Shown here: positions 12,345 to 25,833 of the stretch, one piece after another
Layout of the letters: each line of letters opens with the position of its first letter
Numbering within the stretch: position 1 is the stretch's first letter
Source of the DNA: a virus
Lineage: Duplodnaviria > Heunggongvirae > Uroviricota > Caudoviricetes
Virus record (IMG/VR): IMGVR_UViG_3300043436_002205
DNA length: 28,512 nucleotides
Reading direction: 5' to 3' (one strand)
Translations under genes and position numbers: made by a program
The notes under the pieces: model-generated
The model's database searches: none
What the model saw: only the letters and a program-made list of their open reading frames with translations
Told to the model about the DNA's origin: nothing

Positions 12345-12374
12345 TTGACATTCGTAGAATACAATGTATAAATA
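12345..12374 (+). promoter_or_regulatory. Promoter of leader 1: TTGACA plus gp55 late box TATAAATA
   Basis: TTGACA 12345-50, TATAAATA 12367-74. Confidence 0.75.
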
Positions 12375-12405
12375 TATCTAACAGAACTAAAGGAACTCGC
12401 ACTAA

Positions 12406-12492
12406 ATGATTCGCCAACCGCAACCTCAAATGAATAATAAGCGCCAGGTATTTACCTGCGAATATATTCGTATGTGCGAGGGTTCTATATAA
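12406..12492 (+). CDS. Leader peptide 1 of tRNA array 1 (28 aa)
   Basis: MIRQPQPQMNNKRQVFTCEYIRMCEGSI*; AAAGGAA RBS; 3' end overlaps the antiterminator strand. Confidence 0.7.
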   Translation: MIRQPQPQMNNKRQVFTCEYIRMCEGSI

Positions 12493-12553
12493 GGATATTA
12501 AATATCATACCTTATCAAAGAACCCTCCAGATGAAAGTCTAGGAGGGTTTTTT
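12478..12553 (+). terminator. Attenuator 1: mutually exclusive antiterminator and intrinsic terminator
   Basis: GAGGGTTCT (12478-86) pairs AGAACCCTC (12519-27); alternatively AACCCTCC..GGAGGGTT plus T-run (12521-53). Confidence 0.8.
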
Positions 12554-12558
12554 AATAT

Positions 12559-12640
12559 GGTGTGTGGCCCGGATGGTAAGGGGATGGATTGCAAATCCAT
12601 AGCACGAAAGTAGTCAGTTCGATTCTGACACACACCTCCA
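12559..12640 (+). tRNA. tRNA-Cys(GCA), enlarged variable loop
   Basis: Cloverleaf, ATGGA-TTGCAAA-TCCAT, U73, CCA. Confidence 0.9.
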
Positions 12641-12646
12641 GAATAC

Positions 12647-12718
12647 GGTGACACGTTGCGGTAACGACTTGGGTCTCATAAGCCCGAAGAGATGGTTCGA
12701 GTCCATCTGGCACCACCA
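12647..12718 (+). tRNA. tRNA-Met(CAT), atypical D region
   Basis: TGGGT-CTCATAA-GCCCG, canonical T arm, CCA; acceptor mismatch. Confidence 0.7.
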
Positions 12719-12730
12719 AGAAAAAAGTTG

Positions 12731-12759
12731 TTGACATTCATCTAGAATCAGTTTAGATA
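12731..12759 (+). promoter_or_regulatory. sigma70 promoter with spacer GAATCAG
   Basis: TTGACA; GAATC at 12745. Confidence 0.75.
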
Positions 12760-12797
12760 TGAGTTGACGGCGGAAGAAAGACAAAATCAATCTTCCA

Positions 12798-12812
12798 GTT
12801 CTTTGAAAATTT
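12798..12812 (+). promoter_or_regulatory. boxA-like antitermination site
   Basis: GTTCTTTGAAAATTT resembles rrn boxA (TGCTCTTTAACA); downstream of the promoter at 12731. Confidence 0.55.
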
Positions 12813-12856
12813 AAACTTTGTCCTAGCGTAAGCGATGATGGACTGGAAACAGATTT

Positions 12857-12962
12857 ACTCTGTTTTCAACTAGGGTTCGCGGTTCGATTCCGTGCTGGGC
12901 TTCGCGGGCCCGGGTTGCTGCAGCAGATAGTCATGGATGACGACCCTAGTTGAAAACAGAGT
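12857..12962 (+). ncRNA. Long-stem ncRNA A with permuted tRNA-like core
   Basis: Perfect 20-bp terminal stem enclosing T arm CGCGG-TTCGATT-CCGTG, a closed acceptor-like hairpin and a D-like hairpin. Confidence 0.7.
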
Positions 12963-12964
12963 TT

Positions 12965-13039
12965 TGGGAAGTAGTTCAGCGGCAGAATAACTGACTTTGA
13001 ATCAGCAGGCCGGTGGTTCGAATCCACCCTTCCCAACCA
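12965..13039 (+). tRNA. tRNA-Gln(TTG)
   Basis: Cloverleaf, CTTTGAA loop, U1-A72, CCA. Confidence 0.9.
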
Positions 13040-13047
13040 ATAATCAT

Positions 13048-13125
13048 CTGGGTGTAGCTCAGTCTGCGTAGAGTGCTTGCCTTGGAAGCAAGAAGTCGCT
13101 GGTTCGAATCCAGTCATCCAGACCA
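13048..13125 (+). tRNA. tRNA-Pro(TGG)
   Basis: CTTGC-CTTGGAA-GCAAG, C1-G72, CCA. Confidence 0.9.
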
Positions 13126-13135
13126 AAAATACCTG

Positions 13136-13164
13136 TTGACATTCATTTAGAATCAGTATATTCT
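13136..13164 (+). promoter_or_regulatory. sigma70 promoter with spacer GAATCAG
   Basis: TTGACA-N17-TATTCT. Confidence 0.8.
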
Positions 13165-13187
13165 GATAATACGAAAAGGAAAAAGAA

Positions 13188-13337
13188 ATGAAACGAAAAC
13201 ATAAGGACCTACCGAAGGCACGAAACCCATTCGTCCTTCATCTTTCCAAACGTCTTTCGGGCGCACACGGAAAGACTAAAAAAGCGGAACGCCGTAGTGA
13301 TAAGATGGCGTTGAAGCAGGAATGGACGGTTAGCTGA
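13188..13337 (+). CDS. Small basic protein (49 aa) overlapping tRNA-Lys
   Basis: MKRKHKDLPKARNPFVLHLSKRLSGAHGKTKKAERRSDKMALKQEWTVS*; own promoter and AAGGA RBS. Confidence 0.7.
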   Translation: MKRKHKDLPKARNPFVLHLSKRLSGAHGKTKKAERRSDKMALKQEWTVS

Positions 13338-13400
13338 GTTGGTTTAGCGGCGGGCTTTTAATCCGCGTCAACCAGGGTTCGAATCCCTGACCGTTCACCA
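13324..13400 (+). tRNA. tRNA-Lys(TTT)
   Basis: GCGGG-CTTTTAA-TCCGC, CCA. Confidence 0.9.
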
Positions 13401-13512
13401 TTACTTTGATGATGCACCGAGGGCGATTGGTACCAGCCCTTTCCTTGGTGGAAGCCTGCCGTTGAGGTGGGTGGGAGAGTTTCGATACCTCCACGGTGTA
13501 TCTTCTAAGTAA
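13401..13512 (+). ncRNA. Degenerate tRNA-like RNA with long variable arm and no CCA
   Basis: GATGCACCG/CGGTGTATC stem, GGGC..GCCC D-like arm, TTCC-TTGGT-GGAA, TTCGATA T-like loop. Confidence 0.5.
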
Positions 13513-13523
13513 TAGGAGTAAAG

Positions 13524-13916
13524 ATGTTAGAGTGTTTAATCATTGGTGATAGTATTGCAGTAGGAATAGGGCAATATAGACTGGATTGTGTAGTAGAAGC
13601 TAAGGTAGGTATTAACAGTCGTAACTATGTTAAGACTTATGCATTGCCTGAGTCGAAGTTAACAGTGATTAGCCTTGGTAGTAACGATCTAGGTATGAGC
13701 AATCAATATACTGTGTTGTATAACTTACGTAGCGAAATTAAAGGCACTGTGCTTTGGATATTGCCAGCTAACAATGACGAAGCGAGAAGCAATATACTAA
13801 CTATTGCAAGTATTCATAACGATAAAGTTGCTGATATTAGACAACTGCCGTTAAGCAAAGATGGTGTTCACCCTACTACAAAAAGCTATGAAGCACTAGC
13901 AAAGGTATTTAAATGA
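13524..13916 (+). CDS. SGNH/GDSL hydrolase
   Basis: GDSIA, LGSND and DGVHP catalytic blocks. Confidence 0.85.
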   Translation: MLECLIIGDSIAVGIGQYRLDCVVEAKVGINSRNYVKTYALPESKLTVISLGSNDLGMSNQYTVLYNLRSEIKGTVLWILPANNDEARSNILTIASIHNDKVADIRQLPLSKDGVHPTTKSYEALAKVFK

Positions 13917-14065
13917 CTGTAGAAGAAAGATTGGCAAAACTAGAAGCAATTATTGAAATTCTTATGGAAGACCCTGCGTTTCGACATAAAATCGAAGTTG
14001 CTCGTTTGATGTCAGGTAGTAACAAAAATCCAATCCACTTTGAAATCAAAGCCAATTATCAATAA
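13913..14065 (+). CDS. Hypothetical protein, 50 aa
   Basis: MTVEERLAKLEAIIEILMEDPAF...; ATGA overlap with the upstream stop. Confidence 0.55.
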   Translation: MTVEERLAKLEAIIEILMEDPAFRHKIEVARLMSGSNKNPIHFEIKANYQ

Positions 14066-14066
14066 T

Positions 14067-14142
14067 GCACCGGTAGCTGAGAGGCTTAGCGGCGGGCTCT
14101 TAATCCGCGACAACATGGGTTCGATTCCCATCCGGTACACCA
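14067..14142 (+). tRNA. tRNA-Lys(CTT)
   Basis: GCGGG-CTCTTAA-TCCGC, CCA; C2.A71 mismatch. Confidence 0.85.
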
Positions 14143-14269
14143 AAACGTGCCCTTTGACGTTGAAACAAACTAGGGTGATGGCGAATGATTCTTTCCTATC
14201 CTGCAGGATCAATGGGAAACGTCTAAATAACCATCCGCTGCCGAACTGCGATAGTGCTCGGTGCAATTT

Positions 14270-14347
14270 TGTCCTAGAGTCGTCCAGGTGACGGCACCTG
14301 GCTGTTAACCAGGATGGAGAGAGGTTCGAGTCCTCTTAGGACAGCCA
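14270..14347 (+). tRNA. tRNA-Asn(GTT)
   Basis: CCTGG-CTGTTAA-CCAGG, G73, CCA. Confidence 0.85.
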
Positions 14348-14351
14348 ATAT

Positions 14352-14427
<76 letters not shown>

Positions 14428-14477
14428 AGTTTGTGACAGATCCGGCTGCACATTAAAAGAATTTCCGGCTGAAATTT

Positions 14478-14552
14478 TGTGGTGTAGCTCAGTGGTAGAG
14501 CAATCCCCTGATAAGGGATAGGTCGGTGGTTCAATCCCACCCACTACAACCA
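14478..14552 (+). tRNA. tRNA-Ile(GAT)
   Basis: ATCCC-CTGATAA-GGGAT, CCA. Confidence 0.9.
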
Positions 14553-14557
14553 ATATT

Positions 14558-14641
14558 GGGAGTGCCGCCTCAAGGTGAGGCAGCGGACTGTAACTCCGTC
14601 GAGGAAACTCATGTTGGGTTCGATTCCCTTCACTCCCACCA
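14558..14641 (+). tRNA. tRNA-Tyr(GTA)
   Basis: GCGGA-CTGTAAC-TCCGT, long variable arm, CCA. Confidence 0.9.
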
Positions 14642-14648
14642 ATATAAC

Positions 14649-14725
14649 GTCCCTATAGATTACGTTGGCTAGATCATCGCCCTTTCAAGGCGAAGAAGCG
14701 GGATCGACACCCGCTGGGGATACCA
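14649..14725 (+). tRNA. tRNA-Glu(TTC)
   Basis: TCGCC-CTTTCAA-GGCGA, CCA. Confidence 0.9.
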
Positions 14726-14730
14726 ATCAC

Positions 14731-14804
14731 ACTCCTGTAGCATAATGGCAGTGCGCTGTCCTGACTCGACAGATGAGAAGGCTCGATTCCTTCCAGGAGT
14801 ACCA
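14731..14804 (+). tRNA. tRNA-Val(GAC), atypical U37 and C54
   Basis: CTGTC-CTGACTC-GACAG, CCA. Confidence 0.75.
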
Positions 14805-14809
14805 ACAAC

Positions 14810-14883
14810 GCTGCTATAGTATAAAGGTATTATGCATCTTTGGTAAGGATGAGACGGAGGATCGTTACCTCCTAGCAGCACCA
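14810..14883 (+). tRNA. tRNA-Thr(GGT)
   Basis: CATCT-TTGGTAA-GGATG, CCA. Confidence 0.85.
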
Positions 14884-14938
14884 TTTAGAGGTTGACATGT
14901 GGAACAGTTTAGACTATGATGGTGTAAAGGAGACAGCT

Positions 14939-15244
14939 ATGAACATCTCAATCGACTATGATGATACTTACACCAAAGATCCTCTTCTGTGGAATTGGTT
15001 CGCACAAGAAGCGTTGAACCGTGGACATAAGGTCTACTGTGTATCTGCTCGTGGAACCCAACACATGGATGATCCAAAGATGACAATCGGTCGAGTGATC
15101 GGTGCAGAGAATTGCTTTGGTACTGGTCTTCGTCCTAAACGTCACTTTATGCATCATGTTCATAAGATTGACATCGATGTATGGATCGACGATATGCCTG
15201 AGATGATTGTTGATCAGGAAATCGAAGGTTTGTATATGCCTTAA
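14939..15244 (+). CDS. Small HAD-like phosphatase
   Basis: IDYDDTYT (DxD), VSAR, K, WIDD; AAGGAG RBS before ATG 14939. Confidence 0.7.
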   Translation: MNISIDYDDTYTKDPLLWNWFAQEALNRGHKVYCVSARGTQHMDDPKMTIGRVIGAENCFGTGLRPKRHFMHHVHKIDIDVWIDDMPEMIVDQEIEGLYMP

Positions 15245-15245
15245 T

Positions 15246-15318
15246 GCTTCTGCCGGCGGAACCGGTGGCGGGTCTACGAAGCCTGCTTACGAATGTTCAA
15301 CTCATTCCAGGAGCGCCA
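15246..15318 (+). tRNA. tRNA-Arg(ACG), shortened D arm
   Basis: CGGGT-CTACGAA-GCCTG, CCA. Confidence 0.75.
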
Positions 15319-15323
15319 ATAAC

Positions 15324-15398
15324 GCCTCTATAGCTCAGCGGAAGAGTACTGGTCTTCGAAACCAAGGGTCGGGAGTTCGAATCTCTCTAGGGGCACCA
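15324..15398 (+). tRNA. tRNA-Arg(TCG)
   Basis: CTTCGAA loop, canonical arms, CCA. Confidence 0.9.
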
Positions 15399-15478
15399 AA
15401 CTACTCGTCAAAGACTAATCTTTATAAATACATATATCTAAATTATGAATTTGCACGGATTAGAAAAGGAGTAATTTC

Positions 15479-15730
15479 ATGGAAGAAGTGTATACAATCC
15501 TAGACTTTGATGTAGTTCAAAAGTTACACGGTAACTATGTAATTACTAGAAGAATAGATGAGTCTGATCAAGTTACATCAAAATACGAGTATCACGTAGG
15601 AAAGATTAACGCAGATACTCAGGCAATAGAACTTCTAGAAAGAATAGGATCTACTGCCAGAAATGTTGTTTCTATACCAGAAAATCAGATTAATCTCGCT
15701 AAGACTGTTCTACTATCATACCTACCATAA
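15479..15730 (+). CDS. Hypothetical late protein, paralogue of 10203-10475
   Basis: AAGGAG RBS; TATAAATA at 15423. Confidence 0.65.
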   Translation: MEEVYTILDFDVVQKLHGNYVITRRIDESDQVTSKYEYHVGKINADTQAIELLERIGSTARNVVSIPENQINLAKTVLLSYLP

Positions 15731-15795
15731 AAAGATCGAGTTTGCGAACCTAACTATATGATGACTATAACTGGTCTTACACATAGGAGGCGCGT

Positions 15796-16125
15796 ATGCC
15801 TGTTAAGATCAAAAAAGAATTAGAAGAAAGTAGTTGTCATGTTGATGACGCTGAAATAAAAAATACTGAGACGATGATTGAACTGCAAGACCGCAAACTT
15901 CGTATTGAGAACGAAGATAAGAAACAAGATGCTCAACGTAGCATGGCATGGTTCGCTCTGTTCGGAATGTTATTGTATCCATTCACGGTCGTCTTGGCCG
16001 ATGCGCTAGGATTGTATCAGGCAGCGACTATCATTGGTAATATGGCAAGCATATACTTCGTATCAGTTGCTGCTATTGTATCTGCGTTCTACGGAACACA
16101 GGCATACGTATCAAAAGGCAAGTAA
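15796..16125 (+). CDS. Membrane protein with two predicted TM helices (holin-like)
   Basis: Hydrophobic MAWFALFGMLLYPF and IYFVSVAAIVSAFYG segments; GGAGG RBS. Confidence 0.6.
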   Translation: MPVKIKKELEESSCHVDDAEIKNTETMIELQDRKLRIENEDKKQDAQRSMAWFALFGMLLYPFTVVLADALGLYQAATIIGNMASIYFVSVAAIVSAFYGTQAYVSKGK

Positions 16126-16140
16126 TATCTAAAACATTCA

Positions 16141-16167
16141 AGGGCTGCATCATGCAGCCCTTTTTTT
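16141..16167 (+). terminator. Intrinsic terminator
   Basis: AGGGCTGCA-TCA-TGCAGCCCT plus T-run. Confidence 0.85.
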
Positions 16168-16168
16168 G

Positions 16169-16197
16169 TTTACATTTGAATAGAATCAGTATATATT
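16169..16197 (+). promoter_or_regulatory. sigma70 promoter with spacer GAATCAG (topoisomerase)
   Basis: TTTACA-N17-TATATT. Confidence 0.8.
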
Positions 16198-16224
16198 GAT
16201 ATTGACCACCGTAAGGAGTACACT

Positions 16225-18057
16225 ATGTCAAAAGAACAGTTTAAGATTCTCACTCCACGTGAACACGTGCGAGAAAGAATCGGTATGTACATGGGGTCGG
16301 CTGCTCGAGAAGAGGTCGATCGTTTTGTGCTCGGTAAATGGAAAACCACCGTCTATATCCCTGCTTTGTCGAAGATGATCGATGAGATCCTCGACAACTC
16401 GATTGACGAAGCTATTCGTACCAACTTTAGGTTTGCAAATAAGATCGACGTATCAGTAGACGGCGACTGTGTGATTGTCTCTGATAACGGCCGTGGTATT
16501 CCACAGGACGAGATCTTCGATTCCGTAACTCAAGAAAACATTCTTCGTCCTGTTGCTGCATGGACTCGAGTGAATGCAGGTACTTCGTTTGATAATGAAC
16601 GTGTTACGATTGGTACGAACGGCGTTGGATCATCGGCGACCAACTTTCTTTCGACTGAGTTCATTGGACGCACTTGGCAGAACGGCAATCTCCTTGAGGT
16701 TACCTGTACAGAGGGTGGTCTCAAGACGAAAGTAAAACAGAAGACTCGAGCCGGATCTGGTACTGAAGTGTCGTTCAAACCAGACTTCAGTTTGTTCGAA
16801 GTAAACTCGATCCAAGAACTCGATACGATTCAGTTGGTCGAGGATCGTCTTGTAAGTCTTCAGATGGCATTTCCCGAGATTTCATTCTCATTCAATAAGA
16901 AGCGTACTCAGACAGCAAACATCAAGAAGTATTCTTCTATGTTCGTTCCTGAGAACGCATCGGTGATCTCTGAAATTTCTTGTGACCTTACGTTCTTCTT
17001 TTCTTCGTCCGAGGACGGATTTAGGTCGAACAGTTTCGTGAACGGTGTTAACACTCGTCAGGGTGGTTCGTATGTGGACTACATCGTGAATGGAGTTGTC
17101 GACGAACTCGTGACTCTGATTAAACGTCGACATAAGATCGAAGTCGCAAAGAGCACAATCAAAGGTGGTCTTACCTTTGTCATGTTCGCTCGTAACTTTA
17201 CAAACCCCAAGTTCGATAGTCAGACGAAAGAACGTCTTACGAACCCAGTCAGTAACGTAAAGGAACACTACGACGGAGCAAACATCAAAGACTTCTTGTA
17301 TCTTGCCAAGAAGATCTTTGCTTCCAATGACATCATCGACCCTATCATCGAAGCTCAGATCGCAAAGAAGCAGGCTGCCGACAGACGAGATGCCGCTCTT
17401 GCTCAGAAGAAGCTCAAGAAGGTCAAGGTCGCAAAACATATCGCCGCCAACAAAGATGGCGCCGTCCTGAAGATCGTCGAAGGTGACTCGGCAATGGGCT
17501 TCCTTCTCAAGGTTAGAGATCCAGATAAAGTCGGTGCTTATCCTCTGCGTGGTGTTATCATGAACACGTGGGATATGAAACCATCTGAAGTTCTCAAGAA
17601 CAAAGAACTTGGCGAACTGATTGCAGTCCTTGGTCTCGACATCAACGATCCGAACAGTGTCGACAATATGACCTATGGTCAGATCGCTTCGCTGACAGAC
17701 GCAGACCACGACGGCATCGGTCATATCTCTCCGTTGCTGATTGCTTTCTTCTACAAGTTCTGGCCTCGACTCCTGAAAGAGAAGCGAGTGTACATTACTC
17801 GTACTCCAATCATGATCTCGACGAACGGAAAAGAAACGAAGTGGTTCTATACATACGAAGAGGCAGCCAACTTCAAAACGAAAGAGACCGGGTGGAAACA
17901 CCGCTACATCAAGGGTCTTGGTAGTTTGACAGAAGAAGAGTACGATGTAATCATCAATAATCCTACCTATGATGTCGTGACTGTCGACGATGCCTCGTAT
18001 TTCCAGATGATGTTTGGCGACGACTCTACGCCTCGTAAGGAGTTTATGTTTCAATGA
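16225..18057 (+). CDS. 39: DNA topoisomerase II large subunit (gp39 and gp60 as one ORF)
   Basis: EILDNSIDE, DNGRGIP, GTNGVG (GHKL); EGDSA, PLRG, DADHDG, YIKGLG (TOPRIM). Confidence 0.95.
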   Translation: MSKEQFKILTPREHVRERIGMYMGSAAREEVDRFVLGKWKTTVYIPALSKMIDEILDNSIDEAIRTNFRFANKIDVSVDGDCVIVSDNGRGIPQDEIFDSVTQENILRPVAAWTRVNAGTSFDNERVTIGTNGVGSSATNFLSTEFIGRTWQNGNLLEVTCTEGGLKTKVKQKTRAGSGTEVSFKPDFSLFEVNSIQELDTIQLVEDRLVSLQMAFPEISFSFNKKRTQTANIKKYSSMFVPENASVISEISCDLTFFFSSSEDGFRSNSFVNGVNTRQGGSYVDYIVNGVVDELVTLIKRRHKIEVAKSTIKGGLTFVMFARNFTNPKFDSQTKERLTNPVSNVKEHYDGANIKDFLYLAKKIFASNDIIDPIIEAQIAKKQAADRRDAALAQKKLKKVKVAKHIAANKDGAVLKIVEGDSAMGFLLKVRDPDKVGAYPLRGVIMNTWDMKPSEVLKNKELGELIAVLGLDINDPNSVDNMTYGQIASLTDADHDGIGHISPLLIAFFYKFWPRLLKEKRVYITRTPIMISTNGKETKWFYTYEEAANFKTKETGWKHRYIKGLGSLTEEEYDVIINNPTYDVVTVDDASYFQMMFGDDSTPRKEFMFQ

Positions 18058-19442
18058 CACAGTTGACAGATTTCATGGTTGATGATATAATCAAAAAGAA
18101 TGCAGAAAAGGAATCACCTGTGAGTAAGAAAGACTATCCTATCTCAGCCGTTGCAAAAAACGAATGGAAATCATTCGCTATGTATACGGTCGAAGCTCGA
18201 GCCATTCCTAACATGATTGACGGTCTTAAACCCGTTCAGCGTTACTACCTCTACTCGTCAATCGTAAACTCGAAGACCGACTTTAAGAAGGTCAGTGCCA
18301 TCTCAGGTATCATCTCTGACTATGGCTATAACCACGGTGAGGCTAGCGCTGCTGGTTCCGGTCAGCTGATGGCTGCTACCTGGAACAACAACATCTGTCT
18401 TATTGAAGGTCGAGGTTCGTTTGGAACTCGACTTGTGCAGGAAGCTGGTGCTCCTCGATACGTGTACACTCGCCTTCATAAGAACTTTAACAAGTATATC
18501 AAGGATCTTGAGCTGTCACCGCAGCACTCAGATCCTGAACACGAGCCGCCTGCCTTCTATCTTCCGGTCATTCCTTTGGTTCTGACGAATGGGTCGAAGG
18601 GAATTGCTACTGGTTTCGCGACGAATATTCTACCTCGTGATCCGGACTCACTTTCTAGTGCTTGTCGTGATTACCTTATGTATGGTAATATAACGAAGAA
18701 GGTTCTGGTGAAGTTTCCAGATTTTTCTGGCACCGTCGAGTACAACGAAGAAGAGAATCGTTACTACTGCAACGGAGTCTATGAGAAGAAAGGCAAAACC
18801 GTTCTGCTCATCACCGAAGTGCCGTATGGATACGATCGTGAAAGCTATGTAAAGGTCCTCGACGATCTGGAAGAGAAGGACGAGATCGTTGGCTATGACG
18901 ACCTCTGTGATAAGACTGGTTTTAAATTCGAAGTCAAGCTGAAGCAAAACACTTCTGCCAATTGGACTGACGAGAAGATCGTCAAACAGTTTAAACTCAG
19001 CAAGCCGTTCACAGAGAACCTAACCGTTATCGACTATGACGGTAAACTTCGTGAATACACCGACGAGCGTACGCTCATCAAGGACTTCTGTAAGTATCGC
19101 GTTGGTATTCTTACCAAGCGTATTAACCTACGTAAGAGCGAGATCTCTGAACTCATGCGTTGGCTGAACGTAAAGATGCAGTTCATCCAGGCTGTTCTCG
19201 ACAATAAGATCGAGTTCAAAAACAAAAAGAAAGACGACGTCGCAAAGCAAATCACTGCTCACACCGACGTCATCTCTGAAGAAGATATCAATAAGCTGCT
19301 TCGTATCAATATGCTCAGCCTTACTGACGAGATGGTGAAACAACTCGAGCAGGAAATCAAAGACGCAAAGAAAGAACATAAGTATTGGTCGACCACGACT
19401 GCAGAGCAGCAGTTCATCAATGATCTTGATGAGATCAAGTAA
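18054..19442 (+). CDS. 52: DNA topoisomerase II medium subunit gp52 (start may be GTG 18120)
   Basis: RAIP..IDGLKPVQR, YNHGE, APRY catalytic Tyr, GIATGFAT. Confidence 0.95.
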   Translation: MTQLTDFMVDDIIKKNAEKESPVSKKDYPISAVAKNEWKSFAMYTVEARAIPNMIDGLKPVQRYYLYSSIVNSKTDFKKVSAISGIISDYGYNHGEASAAGSGQLMAATWNNNICLIEGRGSFGTRLVQEAGAPRYVYTRLHKNFNKYIKDLELSPQHSDPEHEPPAFYLPVIPLVLTNGSKGIATGFATNILPRDPDSLSSACRDYLMYGNITKKVLVKFPDFSGTVEYNEEENRYYCNGVYEKKGKTVLLITEVPYGYDRESYVKVLDDLEEKDEIVGYDDLCDKTGFKFEVKLKQNTSANWTDEKIVKQFKLSKPFTENLTVIDYDGKLREYTDERTLIKDFCKYRVGILTKRINLRKSEISELMRWLNVKMQFIQAVLDNKIEFKNKKKDDVAKQITAHTDVISEEDINKLLRINMLSLTDEMVKQLEQEIKDAKKEHKYWSTTTAEQQFINDLDEIK

Positions 19443-19849
19443 TGTACTACGTTACATATGATAAGCCAAAGTCGATCTCTGATGAACTCATCGATTCTGC
19501 AGTTCAGTTTGCGGCTGAGTTTTTAAATCTCGATGGTTCAATTGAGATCGACTTTGGTGACAAGTTTGAAAAAGATAAGTGCGGATACTGCGACTACGAT
19601 GAAGAAGGAGCCACGATCTTCATCAATCCAAAGATGAAACTGAGCAAGATCATTGTGACTCTGTTTCATGAGATGGTCCATGCTCGACAATTCATGAGAG
19701 GATGGCTCGAGATACCGGACAAAAGTAGTCTTCCTGCCAGGTGGTTCGGAAAGGAGTACGATGTACCATACTTCGAGTCACCTTGGGAGATCGAGGCATA
19801 TGAACTCGAGCTCGTTATGTGGGATATCTTTAACGAAAGAAACAGTTGA
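19442..19849 (+). CDS. HExxH zinc metallopeptidase-like protein
   Basis: TLFHEMVHARQ, PWEIEAY. Confidence 0.75.
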   Translation: MYYVTYDKPKSISDELIDSAVQFAAEFLNLDGSIEIDFGDKFEKDKCGYCDYDEEGATIFINPKMKLSKIIVTLFHEMVHARQFMRGWLEIPDKSSLPARWFGKEYDVPYFESPWEIEAYELELVMWDIFNERNS

Positions 19850-19874
19850 CATTCGTTTAGAATCAGTGTATATT
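19846..19874 (+). promoter_or_regulatory. sigma70 promoter with spacer GAATCAG
   Basis: TTGACA-N17-TATATT. Confidence 0.8.
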
Positions 19875-19900
19875 CATAATATACCGAGAAGGAAACTGTC

Positions 19901-20113
19901 GTGAATATGCACAAAGCAAAACAGGAGTTTGAAACTCATGCGAAGGAAACTCTCAATGTTGAATACATGGGTGGCGCACTCTACGCGTTCGGCTCAGAGC
20001 TCGCTTGCCTACGTTTGGTCAGAGCATATCGCCACTGCGGCCACCGTGCTGATTGCGGTTTTTCTGAAAACATGAAGACTTGGTACTTCTATCTCGAACC
20101 TCTAGGATCATAA
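19901..20113 (+). CDS. Hypothetical protein
   Basis: ORF after the GAATC promoter at 19846; AAGGA RBS. Confidence 0.65.
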   Translation: MNMHKAKQEFETHAKETLNVEYMGGALYAFGSELACLRLVRAYRHCGHRADCGFSENMKTWYFYLEPLGS

Positions 20114-20116
20114 TCG

Positions 20117-20500
20117 ATGATCCTGAAAACGCAGCTTCATGATTCGTACGATCATCTCGTAAATCCATTTGTGAAGTTCCTATGCAATGAACTCTCAGTT
20201 CTTCCTCGTGAAGTCACTATCGTGAGCGAAGACGTAGAAGGTGGAGTCGGTCTCTGTATCGATGTCGATCCCGACTCATTTCTTATTCTCGTGAAAGAGA
20301 GTGGTCGTAGTGTTGGTCAAGTACTTACTACGATTGCTCACGAGATGATCCATGTTAAACAATACATGACACAGGAACTTGGTAGACTTCTAGATGAACA
20401 GAGTCACGTTCCATACGAAGATCGTTGGTGGGAAAAAGAAGCTTATGAAAATGCAGTTCCTTTAGTAGAAAAATTTGTAAAAATTATAAATACCTCGTAA
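20117..20500 (+). CDS. HExxH zinc metallopeptidase-like protein, paralogue
   Basis: TIAHEMIHVKQ, WWEKEAY. Confidence 0.75.
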   Translation: MILKTQLHDSYDHLVNPFVKFLCNELSVLPREVTIVSEDVEGGVGLCIDVDPDSFLILVKESGRSVGQVLTTIAHEMIHVKQYMTQELGRLLDEQSHVPYEDRWWEKEAYENAVPLVEKFVKIINTS

Positions 20501-20515
20501 AGAGGAGATTTATAC

Positions 20516-20980
20516 ATGCAGTCTTTTAAAAATTTTTTGTTAGAACAATCTAAGTGGGTGAAGCCGCATCATACTGATGAACACGACGAAGTTCACGTCC
20601 AGTCTGAAGTTCCTCATGGCGAATATCCAGACCACGTTCATAAAATGTTGCAACATTTGAAAGATAAAGACAACTACCACTCTGCAATGAAGAGTGGGAA
20701 ACACATGGTTGTGACTCCTTCGTCTGCTAAAAAGATCTCTAACACAGACGCTGGATACAAACCAACGCGTGACACGTTTAGACAAGACAAAAGAGAACGT
20801 GTCACAAAACAGATGAAGAGTGGAAAGCCAATGACTAAGCCGATAGTTCTTCATGATACTCATACCGGCCATACGCATCTTTTAGCTGGAAACACTCGAC
20901 TCACAATGAACACCCATCACGGATCAAAAACAACACCAGTTCATGCTATCACGTATGATTCGAGTAAAATGAAAAAATAA
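20516..20980 (+). CDS. His-rich late protein with ParB/Srx-like C-terminal motif
   Basis: KPIVL...LLAGNTRL; late promoter at 20485; N-terminus MQSFKNFLLE. Confidence 0.55.
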   Translation: MQSFKNFLLEQSKWVKPHHTDEHDEVHVQSEVPHGEYPDHVHKMLQHLKDKDNYHSAMKSGKHMVVTPSSAKKISNTDAGYKPTRDTFRQDKRERVTKQMKSGKPMTKPIVLHDTHTGHTHLLAGNTRLTMNTHHGSKTTPVHAITYDSSKMKK

Positions 20981-21002
20981 TTGTAAAAAATGTCTGCGAC
21001 CA

Positions 21003-21030
21003 TTGACATCTCATACAAATGATATAAATA
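21003..21030 (+). promoter_or_regulatory. Promoter of leader 2: TTGACA plus late box TATAAATA
   Basis: TTGACA 21003-08, TATAAATA 21023-30. Confidence 0.7.
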
Positions 21031-21057
21031 CTATTGTATAACCAACAGAGAAGAAAC

Positions 21058-21138
21058 ATGCTTTCTACACATTCGAGCATATCAAGACAGGCGATAAATC
21101 TCCCAGGCGTATGGACTGATGGAGACGGGCTACTTTGA
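21058..21138 (+). CDS. Leader peptide 2 of tRNA array 2 (26 aa)
   Basis: MLSTHSSISRQAINLPGVWTDGDGLL*; last four codons form the antiterminator strand. Confidence 0.7.
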   Translation: MLSTHSSISRQAINLPGVWTDGDGLL

Positions 21139-21202
21139 CATAGATACAAGATCAAATCTATCTCAAAGTAGCCCAGGATGAAAATCCTGGGTTTCTTCAT
21201 TT
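21127..21202 (+). terminator. Attenuator 2: antiterminator and intrinsic terminator
   Basis: GGGCTACTTTGA (21127-38) pairs TCAAAGTAGCCC (21163-74); alternatively GCCCAGGAT-GAAA-ATCCTGGGT plus T-rich tail. Confidence 0.8.
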
Positions 21203-21207
21203 AATGG

Positions 21208-21236
21208 TTGACAAAACGTTAGAATCAGATTATACT
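21208..21236 (+). promoter_or_regulatory. sigma70 promoter with spacer GAATCAG
   Basis: TTGACA-N17-TATACT. Confidence 0.85.
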
Positions 21237-21259
21237 AACAATATAAGAAGAAACTAACT

Positions 21260-21275
21260 AGCTCTTTGACAATTT
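21260..21275 (+). promoter_or_regulatory. boxA-like antitermination site
   Basis: AGCTCTTTGACAATTT downstream of the promoter at 21208. Confidence 0.65.
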
Positions 21276-21448: not shown

Positions 21449-21526
21449 TGCGGGGTAGACTGGAGGTGGTTCCAGCACGGTCTCATAAGCCGAAGACGTA
21501 GGTTCGATTCCTACCCACCGCAACCA
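21449..21526 (+). tRNA. tRNA-Met(CAT), initiator-like
   Basis: TGCGGGG 5' end, CTCATAA loop, CCA; irregular acceptor. Confidence 0.75.
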
Positions 21527-21528
21527 AG

Positions 21529-21616
21529 TTTAGACTGTAGAATTAATCACCTCTTGTGAAGGTGTCCCTGATCCGTCATCGCCGGCAGGTCAAAGCTGCA
21601 AACAGCCCAGTCTAAA
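21529..21616 (+). ncRNA. Structured spacer RNA
   Basis: TTTAGACTG/CAGTCTAAA closing stem; CACCT-CTTGTGA-AGGTG; GCTG-CAAA-CAGC. Confidence 0.4.
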
Positions 21617-21623
21617 ACAAATC

Positions 21624-21657
21624 GGGGGATTAGCTCAATTGGTTAGAGTTGCCCGCT
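21624..21657 (+). pseudogene. 5' half of a tRNA truncated at position 33
   Basis: GGGGGAT-TA-GCTC-AATTGGTTA-GAGT-T-GCCCG-CT followed by AT-rich endonuclease DNA; no matching 3' half seen. Confidence 0.7.
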
Positions 21658-21698
21658 ATGAAATATCTTTTTGTATAAATAGACAAAAGGAGATTATA

Positions 21699-22262
21699 AT
21701 GCTTTACACAATATACCAAATAACTAATGAGCTTAACGGAAAAATATACATAGGAAAGCATCAAACTACCAATCTCAATGATAGATATTATGGCTCTGGA
21801 AAGTTCATAAGGTCTGCCATGAAGAAATATGGTAAAGAGAACTTTACTAAAGAGATACTATTTGTCTTCGATACTGAAGAAGAAATGAATACAAAAGAGA
21901 AAGAGTTGATAACAGAAGAGTTTGTATCCAGAAAAGATACTTACAACGCCGGAATTGGCGGAGAAGGAGGACCTCATTTCAAAGGGAAAAAGCACGGCTC
22001 TTACATGAAAGAAATAAGTAGCTCTGTAGATCATCGTAAAAAAATAAGTGAAGGTCTTAAAGAACACTATAAAGATAACGCTGCTTGGAACAAAGGTCAA
22101 ACAATATCATCAAATCAAAAAGATAAAATATCAAAAACAATGAGTGGAAGAAAACTTTCAGAAGAAACAAAAAATAAGATAAAAGAAGCGCGGGCAAGAC
22201 AAACATTTTCAGAAGAAACAAAAAAGAAAATGACTGAAAGCGCAAGAAATAGAAAGAAATAA
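21699..22262 (+). mobile_element. Free-standing GIY-YIG homing endonuclease (Seg-like) with NUMOD3-type repeats
   Basis: TIYQITNELNGKIYIGKH, YYGSG, YN...GGEGG, SEETK repeats; AT-rich; own TATAAATA and AAGGAG. Confidence 0.9.
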
Positions 22263-22269
22263 TTTTAGT

Positions 22270-22346
22270 GGGCTTGTCGACTAATTGGTTAAGTCACAAT
22301 CCTCATAAGATTGCTGATCGCGGTTCGAGTCCGTGCGGGCCTACCA
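22270..22346 (+). tRNA. tRNA(CAT), probably Ile2 (lysidine substrate)
   Basis: CAATC-CTCATAA-GATTG; GGGC acceptor start with C4-G69 resembles Ile2; CCA. Confidence 0.75.
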
Positions 22347-22432
22347 AAATTATTTCTTGGTCTTATTATAATCGGTACTGCTGGGATAGGGCAGCTAAGT
22401 CGGCACGAGGAGGTGCTAGAGCCAAAAACATT

Positions 22433-22508
<76 letters not shown>

Positions 22509-22531
22509 TACTTTCTATTGAAAGGTTTCCT

Positions 22532-23197
22532 ATGTTAACTCATATTCAAAATATGCAATGGGTTGGCGCTCTTAGTCTTGAAGACGCAGACGTACTAGCT
22601 CAGAAGTCAAAGACTGCTCTAAAGATATTAGAATTTGGCCCTGGTGGCTCGACAATGATATTTCTTCAGAGTATTGATTCTAACGCATCAGTTACTTGCG
22701 TTGAGACTCGACAGCAATGGATTGAAGAACTACAGAATAGATTAGATCTTATTGAACATAAGTCTAATAATTATGAGTTCTATCGGTATAAAGATTTCAT
22801 GAATAAAGAAATTAGAGAAGAAAGCTTTGATCTCATATTTGTTGATGGTGAGAAAACATTTAGAGAAGACTTTGCGCGTAAGACATGGTATCTGTTAAAG
22901 AACGGCGGAGAGATGATGTTTCACGACACAAAGAGAATATCATATATTGATAGTATGATGAACGTAATTCGCAATAAACTTTTTCAAATCGAAAGCGTTC
23001 AATTTAATATTAAAGCATCAAACGGAGAGAATTCAAACATTTCTTCGATTAAGAAAACAGCTAGAATTGAACCACCAAACAACTTACAGAGTATCGAACA
23101 AGAAAGAGAACTGTGGACTTTTGGTGGTATCAGACAACATAACTATACGATAGACAAAGGTCTGTTTGTATATAGAAATACAGAAGCGCAAAAATAA
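22532..23197 (+). CDS. Class I SAM-dependent methyltransferase
   Basis: LEFGPGGST, DLIFVDG, GGEMMFHD; real start ATG 22532 after AAAGG. Confidence 0.8.
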   Translation: MLTHIQNMQWVGALSLEDADVLAQKSKTALKILEFGPGGSTMIFLQSIDSNASVTCVETRQQWIEELQNRLDLIEHKSNNYEFYRYKDFMNKEIREESFDLIFVDGEKTFREDFARKTWYLLKNGGEMMFHDTKRISYIDSMMNVIRNKLFQIESVQFNIKASNGENSNISSIKKTARIEPPNNLQSIEQERELWTFGGIRQHNYTIDKGLFVYRNTEAQK

Positions 23198-23198
23198 A

Positions 23199-23286
23199 GG
23201 AAGCGTGGGCGAGAGGTTTATGCCTGCAGTCTTGAAAACTGCCGAACGGAAACGTTCCGTGAGTTCGAATCTCACCGCTTCCGCCA
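23199..23286 (+). tRNA. tRNA-Ser(TGA)
   Basis: GCAGT-CTTGAAA-ACTGC, long variable arm, G73. Confidence 0.95.
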
Positions 23287-23292
23287 TGATTT

Positions 23293-23357
23293 AGGATCGG
23301 TTCAGCAAACCAAAACGCTAAAATGTTATGATAGTCTTAGCGGACAAAACGATCCTG
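23293..23357 (+). ncRNA. Y-RNA-like element 4 (minimal form)
   Basis: AGGATCG/CGATCCT, GTTCAGCAA, CGCTAA/TTAGCG hairpin. Confidence 0.7.
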
Positions 23358-23365
23358 TTTAATTT

Positions 23366-23441
23366 GGGCTCTTAGCTCAGCTGGGAGAGCGCCTGCCTTG
23401 CAAGCAGGAGGTCAGGAGTTCGATCCTCCTAGGGTCCACCA
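23366..23441 (+). tRNA. tRNA-Ala(TGC)
   Basis: CTTGCAA loop, G3.U70, CCA. Confidence 0.95.
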
Positions 23442-23460
23442 ATATAACGGAGAACATCTA

Positions 23461-23544
23461 ATGGCTGCATTTCTTATCTTTATGGCAGTGGTTATAGTTG
23501 CAATTCTCTGGATTTCAGATGGACCAGGATCAAATCGCTGGTAA
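23461..23544 (+). CDS. 27-aa single-TM peptide
   Basis: MAAFLIFMAVVIVAILWISDGPGSNRW*; GGAG RBS. Confidence 0.5.
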   Translation: MAAFLIFMAVVIVAILWISDGPGSNRW

Positions 23545-23551
23545 TAGAATT

Positions 23552-23625
23552 GGCCTATTCGTATATGGGTATTACATTCGGCTGTCCACCGGATAAAGAG
23601 GGTTCAAGTCCCTCATAGGTCGCCA
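23552..23625 (+). tRNA. tRNA-Asp(GTC)
   Basis: TTCGG-CTGTCCA-CCGGA, G73, CCA. Confidence 0.85.
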
Positions 23626-23628
23626 ACT

Positions 23629-23716
23629 TACGATGGTTGTGTTAGAGTCTTGGTTGTCTTAACACATAAACTAGAAAGAGGTACGGGTCGCTACCGTCGC
23701 TCACTATTCCATCGTA
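23629..23716 (+). ncRNA. Structured spacer RNA with GGGTCGCTACC hairpin
   Basis: TACGATGG/CCATCGTA closing stem; ACGG-GTCGCTA-CCGT T-arm-like hairpin. Confidence 0.45.
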
Positions 23717-23725
23717 TTCAATAAT

Positions 23726-23800
23726 GCGGAATTAGCTCAGTGGTAGAGCCCCTCGTTTACACCGAGGTTGTCGGGAGTTCGACCCTCTCATTCCGCACCA
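23726..23800 (+). tRNA. tRNA-Val(TAC)
   Basis: TTTACAC loop, CCA. Confidence 0.95.
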
Positions 23801-23807
23801 ACTACAT

Positions 23808-23884
23808 GCCCATGTAGGCCAATTGGTAGAGTCGGCGCGCTTAGAACGCGTATGTTGGGGGTTCGAGTCCCTCCATGGGCACCA
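23808..23884 (+). tRNA. tRNA-Leu(TAG) with short variable loop
   Basis: GCGCG-CTTAGAA-CGCGT, 77 nt, CCA. Confidence 0.85.
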
Positions 23885-23890
23885 AAATTT

Positions 23891-24081
23891 AGAATGTTTA
23901 CAGCAACAAAACAAAACTACTGGTTCGATTCCAGTACTCCCCACCATGGATACACTGTCAGCACTGTGAGAAGCGCAGATCGACAAGACTAGAACAAGGT
24001 TTGAATCCAAACAGTGTATCTTTGATGGGGAGTATGGCAAGGTGCCGCTAAGAGCAATCTTAGCTTTCCCCAAACATTCTG
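23891..24081 (+). ncRNA. Y-RNA-like element 5 with YrlA-type permuted tRNA domain
   Basis: AGAATGTTT/AAACATTCT, TTACAGCAA, T arm, ACTCCCC-A-CCA ... GGGGAGT acceptor, D-like arm. Confidence 0.75.
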
Positions 24082-24103
24082 TTATATAGTATAGGAGAGC
24101 ACA

Positions 24104-24337
24104 ATGCGCGATAGAGCTTTTCGACGATTTCAAGAACTTAAGAAGAAGCAGTGGGTTCGAAAGTTTTTCTCAAAACATCGAGCTCGTGATCTAACCGATG
24201 CTGATGTTGGAGTCTATTCTCATACACCGCATCTGTGTTCCTGCTACTTATGTGGTAATCCACGCAAGTGGTGGGATCAAAAGACTCTTCAAGAAAAGAA
24301 GATGGAAGACTTTTATAAAGCAACTGATGAAGACTAA
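24104..24337 (+). CDS. Small basic protein with a CSCxxCGNPR motif
   Basis: TPHLCSCYLCGNPRK; AGGAG RBS. Confidence 0.75.
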   Translation: MRDRAFRRFQELKKKQWVRKFFSKHRARDLTDADVGVYSHTPHLCSCYLCGNPRKWWDQKTLQEKKMEDFYKATDED

Positions 24338-24338
24338 T

Positions 24339-24426
24339 GGATCGTGGGCAGGACGGTAATGCAGCAGATTGCTAATCTGTAGAACGAGCAATCGTTCACT
24401 GGGTTCGACTCCCAGACGGTCCGCCA
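24339..24426 (+). tRNA. tRNA-Ser(GCT)
   Basis: GCAGA-TTGCTAA-TCTGT, long variable arm, G73. Confidence 0.9.
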
Positions 24427-24430
24427 ATAC

Positions 24431-24519
24431 GGGTGGTAATCCTAGTTGGGACTAGGGCTCGCCTGGAAAGCGATGCGCAGGCGCAAGTCTGTCAGATTCG
24501 ATTTCTGTGCCACCCGCCA
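24431..24519 (+). tRNA. tRNA-Ser(GGA)
   Basis: CTGGAAA loop, long variable arm, G73. Confidence 0.85.
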
Positions 24520-24531
24520 AAAAAATAATGG

Positions 24532-24560
24532 TTGACATTCACATAGAATCAGTTTATATT
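24532..24560 (+). promoter_or_regulatory. sigma70 promoter with spacer GAATCAG
   Basis: TTGACA-N17-TATATT. Confidence 0.85.
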
Positions 24561-24591
24561 GATAATGTAAGTAACGAAAGGAAACAACGTT

Positions 24592-24756
24592 ATGCTTTAC
24601 ATTCGTGATATCATGGAGCTTCTTCAAGTTGATAAAGAAGTCGCGACTAAAGTGTTTGCTTGGATGGATCTTGACCTGAGCGAATGCACTAGGGAAGATT
24701 TCGATGCTGATGCACGTTATGTGTATGCCCAAATTAAAAATGGTACATACAAATAA
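24592..24756 (+). CDS. Hypothetical early protein, 54 aa
   Basis: MLYIRDIMELLQVDKEVATKVFAWMDLDLSEC...; promoter 24532 and AAGGA RBS. Confidence 0.7.
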   Translation: MLYIRDIMELLQVDKEVATKVFAWMDLDLSECTREDFDADARYVYAQIKNGTYK

Positions 24757-24759
24757 CTA

Positions 24760-24788
24760 TTGACATTCATGTCGAATCAGTGTATTCT
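24760..24788 (+). promoter_or_regulatory. sigma70 promoter with spacer GAATCAG
   Basis: TTGACA-N17-TATTCT. Confidence 0.85.
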
Positions 24789-24814
24789 AATAATGTAAGG
24801 AACGAAAGGAAACC

Positions 24815-25015
24815 TTGATGAATATCGCTAGCTCCAAACTTGCTGAGATTGCCTACGGTATGTCCGAGATGGCTCGCACTCACAAGAACGACGTGATTGC
24901 AAACAACCTCGCTCGCGTTTCGGAAAAGGTCGCCGTCCAAGGTGCAAACTGGGCAGGTAAACCGCTCGATGAAACTGATATGATGTTGGTTCGTTACTAC
25001 CTCGCTAACAAATAA
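24815..25015 (+). CDS. Hypothetical early protein
   Basis: Promoter 24760 and AAGGA RBS. Confidence 0.7.
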   Translation: MMNIASSKLAEIAYGMSEMARTHKNDVIANNLARVSEKVAVQGANWAGKPLDETDMMLVRYYLANK

Positions 25016-25018
25016 TAG

Positions 25019-25047
25019 TTGACATTTCTGTCGAATCAGTGTAGATT
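25019..25047 (+). promoter_or_regulatory. sigma70 promoter with spacer GAATCAG
   Basis: TTGACA-N17-TAGATT. Confidence 0.8.
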
Positions 25048-25073
25048 GAGAATATACAGAAGAGGAACTGATC

Positions 25074-25472
25074 ATGTATACCTTCGATGAAACGATCGTC
25101 TCCGACCTCCACAAGGATGCTTACGGCTATCGCCCAGATGCATACTTCTGGGAAGAGTGGACTCAGTGCGGCGACGACACTCGTCAAGCCATGTGGGATA
25201 ACCTGCTTGTAGAACTTGAGCAAGCGCGTGAGCGGGAAGCTCAAGAACAGATCGCTGCGATCAATGCTTTCGAGCTTGAGATTGCAAACGCTCTTGATGT
25301 TGGTGCTCGTTCGCGTGAAGACGCAGTTCGTTGGATCGTCCAAGGTTTGGAGCTTAGCGATATCGACATGATGTACGGTGGCAGCTACATCTGCTTCCTT
25401 AAGGGTCTGCCTTATCGCATGGCAGCAATGTTTGACAACGCGATCAACTTCTTTCGTGCTGAAGTTGTATAA
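25074..25472 (+). CDS. Hypothetical early protein
   Basis: SDLHKDAYGYRP motif; promoter 25019 and GAGG RBS. Confidence 0.75.
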   Translation: MYTFDETIVSDLHKDAYGYRPDAYFWEEWTQCGDDTRQAMWDNLLVELEQAREREAQEQIAAINAFELEIANALDVGARSREDAVRWIVQGLELSDIDMMYGGSYICFLKGLPYRMAAMFDNAINFFRAEVV

Positions 25473-25490
25473 ATAGTATTGTAACGAGTG

Positions 25491-25580: not shown

Positions 25581-25585
25581 ATAGT

Positions 25586-25661: not shown

Positions 25662-25669
25662 AAATTTAT

Positions 25670-25744: not shown

Positions 25745-25750
25745 ATATAT

Positions 25751-25827: not shown

Positions 25828-25833
25828 AAATTT

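Follow-up and report, generated by a model that had tools for sequence, protein, structure and literature searches.

The stretch of virus DNA analysed here (the window, 28,512 nucleotides, which correspond to bases 53118-81629, minus strand, of one virus record of 217,966 bp; GC 42%) carries two arrays of tRNA genes, each of which is headed by a promoter, a short upstream open reading frame (uORF), an antiterminator whose 5' strand is the 3' end of that uORF, and an overlapping intrinsic terminator, as the preliminary description of this DNA had it. The uORFs, here called leaders, consist almost entirely of codons for the amino acids whose tRNAs are encoded in the array behind them. We read these units as trp/his-type ribosome-mediated attenuators that have been turned into multi-input sensors of aminoacyl-tRNA supply feeding back on tRNA genes, a reading of the sequence to which we assign a probability of roughly three in four; the phage probably makes more of a block of tRNAs when ribosomes read the codons of its leader slowly. 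The case for leader-peptide attenuators that take inventory of the downstream array is comparative, and consists of a layout that recurs in relatives, a frame-specific tracking of arrays by leaders, the permutation of arrays among leaders, the geometry of the units, and the folds of leader 2 under a ribosome mask.

Leader units and tRNA arrays of the window

The features of both units and of both arrays lie on the + strand of the window. The first unit opens with a promoter (12345..12374; -35 element TTGACA at 12345-12350 and TATAAATA at 12367-12374), followed by a Shine-Dalgarno (SD) sequence, read as AAGGA (12390-12394), and by a uORF of 28 codons plus TAA (12406..12492). Codons 25-27 of this uORF form antiterminator strand A (GAGGGTTCT, 12478..12486), which pairs with strand B (AGAACCCTC, 12519-12527); ATAAGG at the stop codon lengthens the A:B helix. 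Strand B in turn overlaps the terminator (stem 12521-12549), in which CCCTCC (12523-12528) pairs with GGAGGG (12542-12547) and is followed by six T (12548-12553), ending 6 nt ahead of the tRNA-Cys gene (start 12559). The A:B duplex is calculated at -22.0 kcal/mol (z=-4.1 against shuffled A) and the terminator hairpin, whose 5' arm holds 14 nt of B, at -16.9 kcal/mol.

The second unit has the same order of parts. Its promoter (21003..21030; TTGACA at 21003-21008, TATAAATA at 21023-21030) leads into a uORF of 26 codons plus TGA (21058..21138) with a purine-rich SD-like motif; the last three codons and the stop form strand A (GGGCTACTTTGA, 21127..21138), which makes a perfect 12-bp duplex with strand B (21163-21174; -21.6 kcal/mol, z=-4.6 against shuffled A). 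The terminator extends to 21198 and is built from one arm at 21170-21179 (overlapping B), the loop GAAA, and a second arm at 21184-21193, with TTTCTTC behind it.

Such units are rare in the genome. A scan of both strands yielded 133 terminator-like hairpins, of which three are preceded by an SD-led short uORF ending 15-45 nt upstream and allow an A:B duplex of -12 kcal/mol or stronger: the two leaders, at -22.0 and -21.6 kcal/mol, and a third candidate at -12.3 kcal/mol. The combination of uORF, SD motif and an A:B duplex of -20 kcal/mol or stronger is thus found only at the two leaders among all 133 hairpins of the 218-kb genome. Their promoters are equally singular, the pattern TTGACW-N14-17-TATAAATA having exactly two sites in the genome, both at leaders; it has no match in the record of Vibrio phage 1.081.O. 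The element TATAAATA by itself occurs 38 times in the genome against 11.8 expected, and 24 of these occurrences lie 15-90 nt ahead of an open reading frame (ORF). By their sequence, the leader promoters read as sigma-70-type promoters overlapping a T4-type late motif. Among the relatives described below, TATAAATA stands 34-46 nt 5' of the uORF start codon in 13 of 19 leaders, two of which lack a -35 element.

The arrays were called with ARAGORN, Rfam, and reading by eye. Array 1 (12559..15398) starts with tRNAs for Cys, Met, Gln (anticodon UUG), Pro, Lys (UUU), Lys (CUU) and Asn and continues with Phe, Ile (GAU), Tyr (GUA), Glu, Val (GAC), Thr (GGU) and Arg (UCG), supplying 13 amino acids. The Arg anticodon had been given as ACG; it is UCG, so that CGC and CGT are not canonical matches to it. 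Array 2 (21449..28478 in the window) starts with two CAU tRNAs, Arg (UCU), Ser (UGA), Ala, Asp and Val (UAC), continues with Leu (UAG), Ser (GCU), Asn, Trp, Pro, a tRNA with anticodon CUA, Gly (UCC) and Thr (UGU), and runs for another ~2.2 kb beyond the window with Leu (UAA), His (GUG), Gly (GCC), Leu (GAG) and Gln (CUG) (locus L001:9874-10724, minus strand). The His(GTG) and Gln(CTG) tRNAs had been predicted to lie just beyond the right edge, and there they are, at L001:10112-10182 and 9874-9944 on the minus strand. Default ARAGORN misses four of the tRNAs, Tyr (GUA, 14558-14638), one CAU (21449-21526), Gly (UCC, 28323-28392) and His (GUG, beyond the edge); all four are confirmed by Rfam or direct reading, and a 95% ARAGORN threshold recovers exactly these. 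An ARAGORN call of tRNA-Glu at 21268-21354 has no Rfam match and was rejected.

The amino-acid composition expected of a leader by chance was taken from the long ORFs of the phages themselves. Array 1 supplies the 13 amino acids from which leader 1 was said to be built, and the leader does contain every one of the 13 (p=5e-4 to 2e-3), the first 20 codons sufficing for this; the array set takes in 25 of 27 codons, where 16.6 are expected (p=2e-4), and when the last six codons are left aside all of the remaining 21 do (p=5e-5). The three final sense codons, Gly, Ser and Ile-ATA, are outside array 1 and located in the pairing strand. Leader 2 proves likewise to be drawn from the amino acids of array 2: of 25 codons, 23 belong to the set, and 13 of 14 amino acids are covered; it uses 15 amino acids, for 14 of which array 2 has tRNAs, and lacks Cys, Glu, Phe, Lys and Tyr. 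Codons for amino acids exclusive to a single array are distributed 7/2 in leader 1 versus 0/16 in leader 2 (exact p=7.5e-5). Ile is encoded in leader 2 by ATA only, which fits the CAU tRNAs at the head of array 2 if one of them is tRNA-Ile2.

Leaders and arrays in relatives

Some 90 loci (denoted L and a number) were collected from IMG/VR with two flanking proteins as anchors, the DUF2828/DUF7788 RNA-binding protein and a Dps-like protein; the 154-aa protein encoded before leader 2, used as a further anchor, returned 14 loci, none of them with tRNAs. A mechanical search of the relatives, with an A:B duplex, a terminator, and an SD-led uORF of 10-45 codons starting with ATG as its criteria, located 17 further distinct leaders ahead of tRNA arrays; two more came to light afterwards. 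The preliminary description had proposed looking for such units upstream of the arrays of related phages. Their sequences are strongly diverged while the layout is shared: an SD-like motif, the ATG, and an open frame of similar length are retained despite near-total change of the peptide. The homologues of uORF 1 at L003:6725-6811, L009:2485-2571 and L036:10516-10602, for example, all have 28 codons and keep the frame, and most of their residues differ.

What the relatives do retain is the correspondence between a leader and the array behind it. In the leader at L006:2455-2526, the first eleven codons stand for Cys, Met, Lys, Phe, Ile, Tyr, Glu, Arg and His, which are the nine that its array serves and no others; the leader at L013:13762-13821 names the seven of its own, and that at L099:1489-1554 its eight. 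In the 28-codon subfamily, codons for Gly, Leu, His and Trp are found mostly where the array has gained Gly (GCC), Leu (GAG), His and Trp tRNAs, the exceptions being L009, with a His tRNA and no His codon, and L003, with Leu codons and no Leu tRNA in the array; leader 1 of the window, whose array lacks these four tRNAs, has Cys where the other three leaders of the subfamily have Gly.

For the statistics, the tRNAs behind a leader were counted as its array until the next leader or a gap exceeding 2,500 nt was reached, giving 17 leader/array pairs. The covariation between leader codons and array content that had been predicted for relatives is clear at the level of amino acids: in the uORF frame, 174 of 182 array amino acids (96%) are present in the leader, against 55-73% in the other five frames of the same leader DNA. 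The permutation proposed at the outset points the same way, as the true pairing gives 253 presence/absence agreements and arrays shuffled among leaders 195.5 +/- 10 (z=5.8; 0 of 20,000 permutations as high, p<5e-5); with type-1 leaders alone z is 4.8, and 4.75 after one clade is thinned. For single amino acids, the 13 thinned type-1 pairs were counted as having the amino acid in both leader and array, in the leader only, in the array only, or in neither: Trp 4/0/0/9, Gln 9/0/0/4, His 8/0/2/3, Lys 12/0/0/1, Gly 4/3/0/6 and Leu 5/2/0/6. The co-occurrence in leader and array is almost perfect for Trp, Gln, His and Lys. It had also been noted that the last codons, lying in the pairing strand, form an exception to the rule; over the whole set, leaving out the last six codons removes 21 of 83 leader-only calls at the cost of 2 of 176 matches.

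Two leaders found after the hypothesis had been fixed conform to it. The leader at L045:1041-1151 covers 19 of 19 array amino acids, and that at L114:2189-2281 (minus strand), the second leader of a 283-kb phage (G001), covers 11 of 11. The latter is homologous to leader 2 of the window, with a diverged peptide and a near-identical terminator; between the two there are two compensatory double changes within the A:B helix (CTA/TAG versus TCA/TGA). It has no codons for Cys, Glu, Lys, Tyr, His or Trp, and the first leader of the same phage (L013) consists of Tyr, Phe, Ile, Cys, Lys, Glu and Met. The division into two leaders and two arrays thus recurs in L099 as well as in G001, in which the identity of the anchor protein is no more than 60%.

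The preliminary description extended the split to isoacceptors, which is true in two places and does not amount to a general match. ATA is used for Ile in 4 of 4 cases in type-2 leaders, versus ATT or ATC in 28 of 33 in type-1 leaders (Fisher p=0.002), and type-2 arrays start with CAU tRNAs and have no Ile (GAU); the Arg codon AGA is present in all three type-2 leaders and only once among type-1 leaders.

Proposed mechanism and competing explanations

RNA polymerase would start at the sigma-70/T4-late-type promoter and transcribe the short SD-led uORF, whose last codons form strand A; A could pair with B, which would also serve as the 5' arm of the terminator (B:C). An unhindered ribosome would reach the stop codon and cover A, upon which B:C would pair and transcription would end before the first tRNA gene. 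A ribosome stalled at any earlier codon would leave A free to capture B as it emerges, and polymerase would enter the array. As the sensing part of a leader contains about one codon for nearly every amino acid of the array, the unit would work as a multi-input OR gate and exert negative feedback on the tRNA genes, with internal promoters and their boxA-like sites supplying transcription independent of the attenuator. What we infer is that the uORFs are translated, that A captures B kinetically, that the regulation has this direction, and that it acts mainly on late transcripts; a connection to anticodon nucleases is speculation.

The geometry of the units suits this scheme. Strand A always falls within roughly the last seven codons, and 22-33 nt separate the stop codon from the terminator stem; A lies between 23 nt upstream and 3 nt downstream of the stop, and 18 of 19 leaders are arranged in this way. 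With a ribosome at the stop, A would thus be covered and B would not. Over all leaders, relatives included, the calculated energy of the A:B duplex ranges from -12.6 to -22.5 kcal/mol, with a mean z of -2.6 relative to shuffled A; the overlap of B with the 5' arm of the terminator amounts to 4-16 nt, and the terminators are GC-rich hairpins of -13.5 to -25 kcal/mol followed by T-runs. When leader 2 is folded with a 28-nt ribosome mask, 11-13 bp of A:B are kept and only 5-7 bp of the terminator form for a ribosomal A site at codons 2-20, whereas a terminator of 9-10 bp forms for an A site at codon 21 or later. The leader-1 transcript, if cut before the 3' arm of its terminator, has A paired with B unless the ribosome stands at the stop. 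The four-segment layout of the trp type is not present, and the units are three-strand variants of it: a helix between the 5' untranslated region and A, corresponding to trp segment 1, is predicted in leader 1 of the window and is not conserved in relatives (mean z=-0.43).

Several observations weigh against our interpretation. The equilibrium fold of leader 1 has the terminator in every ribosome state, at 2-8 kcal/mol better than A:B, which means that the switch there must be kinetic; pre-emptive capture of this kind is the accepted view of the classical trp attenuator. Column-wise covariation in A:B, over a MAFFT alignment of 16 type-1 units, is not above that of shuffles; for this helix and for the terminator such a comparison is uninformative, since there is next to no variation in the G/C cores and the alignment slips out of register. 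At the level of codons and under standard wobble rules, 100 of 135 leader codons are cognate to anticodons of their own array, compared with 97.3 expected from codon usage (z=0.55); GTA recurs with array Val (GAC), as do CGC and CGT with array Arg (UCG). Leaders further contain amino acids that their own array does not supply, chiefly Asn, Ser, Ala, Thr and Tyr; the finding that in single-leader phages 15 of 24 such extras have a tRNA in the next array explains them only in part, and the coverage of later arrays is only 59%. As the relatives are phylogenetically non-independent, the permutation p-values overstate significance.

The caveat that internal promoters at 12731 and 21208 bypass the attenuators also holds. 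The first (12731..12809; -35 TTGACA at 12731-12736, -10-like TAGATA at 12754-12759, boxA-like GTTCTTTGAAAA at 12798-12809) is located after the tRNA-Cys and tRNA-Met genes, and its combination of promoter and boxA-like sequence is also present in relatives; the second (21208..21272) has its -35 element at 21208-21213, TATACT as -10 element at 21231-21236, and boxA-like GCTCTTTGACAA at 21261-21272. Both are followed by boxA-like sequences and lack the TATAAATA motif, so the attenuators plausibly control the late, TATAAATA-driven share of array transcription.

Some of these points would be expected if the attenuators were real but served as general sensors of translation capacity, in the manner of whiB7, without being tuned to their own arrays; the likeness would then come from amino acids or codons that the host supplies poorly. 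Long leaders do use 17-19 amino acids (L084:7883-7996, L045:1041-1151), the overall match of codons is absent, most leaders carry extra amino acids, and a three-strand unit should read through in the absence of translation as well. Set against this, the short leaders (L006, L013, L099a, and leader 1 of the window) are specific to their own array set, at p between 5e-5 and 7e-4; phages with two leaders (that of the window, G001 with L013 and L114, and L099) divide the amino acids between them in step with the arrays; and permuting arrays among type-1 leaders lowers the match (z=4.8), with Ile ATA or ATY following the type of array (p=0.002). We consider a general sensor unlikely on these grounds. 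That the uORFs are not translated at all, the units being ordinary terminators and promoter-proximal structures and the match a product of base composition and shared ancestry, is highly improbable: the spacing of SD and ATG is long in several leaders (10-12 nt) and the sequences are related, but coverage is 96% in the uORF frame and 55-73% in the others, SD-like motif, ATG and frame length are kept while the peptide changes, the distance from stop to terminator is constant, and the units are unique in the genome. Scarcely credible is an action of the leader products as peptides, in trans or by nascent-chain arrest, with codon content secondary; some leader peptides elsewhere do act in trans (peTrpL), and a Glu-Gly-Ser or Gly-Gly-Ser tail is conserved here, but this tail is explained by the RNA pairing strand GAGGGTTC, and outside it the peptide is unconserved, with composition and not order being kept.

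Attenuation by leaders matched to their arrays is thus the reading that we prefer. A broader version of it, tentative and on balance a little doubtful, is that each array constitutes a self-contained feedback module: its OR-gate leader would read the supply of charged tRNA for the amino acids of that array only, its codons would turn over with the gain and loss of tRNA genes, and during infection it would turn the array on once the tRNAs of the host run short, are cut by anticodon nucleases, or cannot keep pace with late gene expression, making it the first known direct circuit of tRNA homeostasis and at the same time a counter-defence sensor.

Genomic setting and relation to known systems

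Among the products encoded in the window are helicases, an SbcD-like nuclease, and subunits of a T4-type topoisomerase II. Searches of the phage collection by nucleotide and by protein sequence returned no close cultured relative, only Schizotequatrovirus-like matches of ~50% identity or matches to tRNAs alone; gp39 is ~50% identical in the closest cultured phages, and two regions fetched from the phage-collection matches (L110 and L111) have no tRNA arrays. The complete tRNA gene set of the phage lies within one stretch of ~18.5 kb. After the arrays, ~7.5 kb beyond the right edge of the window, there is a permuted two-piece tmRNA gene of alpha-proteobacterial type (L001:4430-5069, minus strand; Rfam RF04321, 104.6 bits).

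Upstream of leader 1, the region 10751-12310 of the window encodes a 475-aa protein with the Pfam domains DUF2828 and DUF7788, annotated in PHROG as 'RNA-binding protein'. This gene takes the place that in many relatives is held by a Dps/ferritin-like gene, immediately 5' of the leader-1 promoter (L003:6209-6655, L007:4547-4981, and ~560 other IMG/VR loci). After it and ahead of leader 1, ARAGORN and Rfam detect a tRNA-like Arg(UCU) element (12230-12300), which sits inside a GGATCG...CGATCC stem; comparable stem-enclosed tRNA-like elements are found 3' of the same DUF2828 gene in relatives (L003:11440-11560). Array 2 is interspersed with ORFs, one assigned to a homing-endonuclease PHROG (21639-22262) between the two CAU tRNAs and two with methyltransferase domains (22268-23197 and 27563-28312). 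Its CUA tRNA (25907-25984; Rfam tRNA score 65 bits), labelled 'Pyl' by ARAGORN, would read amber codons and is kept at the same array position in many relatives; the leader uORFs of several relatives (L003, L006, L009) terminate in TAG.

The spacers of both internal promoters (12737-12753 and 21214-21230) contain GAATCAG, which includes a GANTC site and is also present in the leader promoters of some relatives (L007, L093). Behind these promoters, at 12798-12960 and 21261-21440, boxA-like GYTCTTTGAMAA is followed by a long stem (CTGTTTTCA...TTGAAAACAG) around a structured RNA with a T-arm-like GGTTCGA(A/T)TCC; this RNA has no Rfam match, and its second copy is the one miscalled as tRNA-Glu by ARAGORN. 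The unit of boxA-like sequence, stem and structured RNA is conserved at L003:7100-7290, L005:12010-12200 and L009:12590-12720.

The closest known counterparts of the leader units are the enterobacterial attenuators trpL, hisL, pheL, thrL, ilvL and leuL, as well as pheM before pheST, in which stalling at regulatory codons leads to readthrough and arrival at the stop codon to termination; multivalent forms exist in thr (Thr/Ile) and ilv (Ile/Val/Leu). The phage units share with them the short leader ORF with an SD-like motif, the intrinsic terminator, a mutually exclusive antiterminator helix, matching geometry, and a correspondence between leader codons and the supply provided by the regulated genes, here at the level of amino acids. 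They differ in that they would regulate tRNA genes rather than enzymes, that their leaders represent each of 7-19 amino acids by about one codon, where the enterobacterial leaders have runs for one to three kinds, and that they are three-strand, phage-borne, and preceded by a promoter with a T4-type late motif, with no sequence homology to the enterobacterial units. Tying transcription attenuation to tRNA charging is also the principle of the T-box, which binds a single uncharged tRNA directly and needs no translation; Rfam at gathering thresholds detects no T-box or other riboswitch family in the window, only tRNA matches.

The nearest precedent for a uORF that senses broadly, its coding sequence determining what is sensed, is the attenuator ahead of whiB7 (wblC) in Actinobacteria, a uORF-terminator switch responsive to many translational stresses (PMC10274678); it is bacterial, enriched in alanine, and controls a transcription factor (PMC10274678), whereas the output of the phage units would be tRNA supply itself, in a direct loop, and the composition of the uORF follows the array behind it. 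The trn operon of Anabaena is an accessory array of 26 tRNA genes that is kept off until translational stress by the repressor TrcR, a ribbon-helix-helix protein acting at the promoter (PMC10272220), in contrast to the leader peptide and terminator of the phage. Full-text literature searches returned no account of leader-peptide control of tRNA genes, which leaves its absence unproven.

Very little is known of how phages regulate their tRNA genes, and it is still debated whether these serve codon compensation or the evasion of defences directed at tRNAs. If our reading is true, this would be the first case known to us of leader-peptide attenuation controlling tRNA genes, and such attenuation, otherwise tied to one to three amino acids, would reach up to 19. 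The composition of a leader predicts the content of its array, as it did here for the His and Gln tRNAs outside the window, and the units, being small and portable sensors of decoding speed, could serve as reporters of tRNA depletion. The phages themselves would be measuring whether their tRNAs are sufficient and correcting the shortfall.

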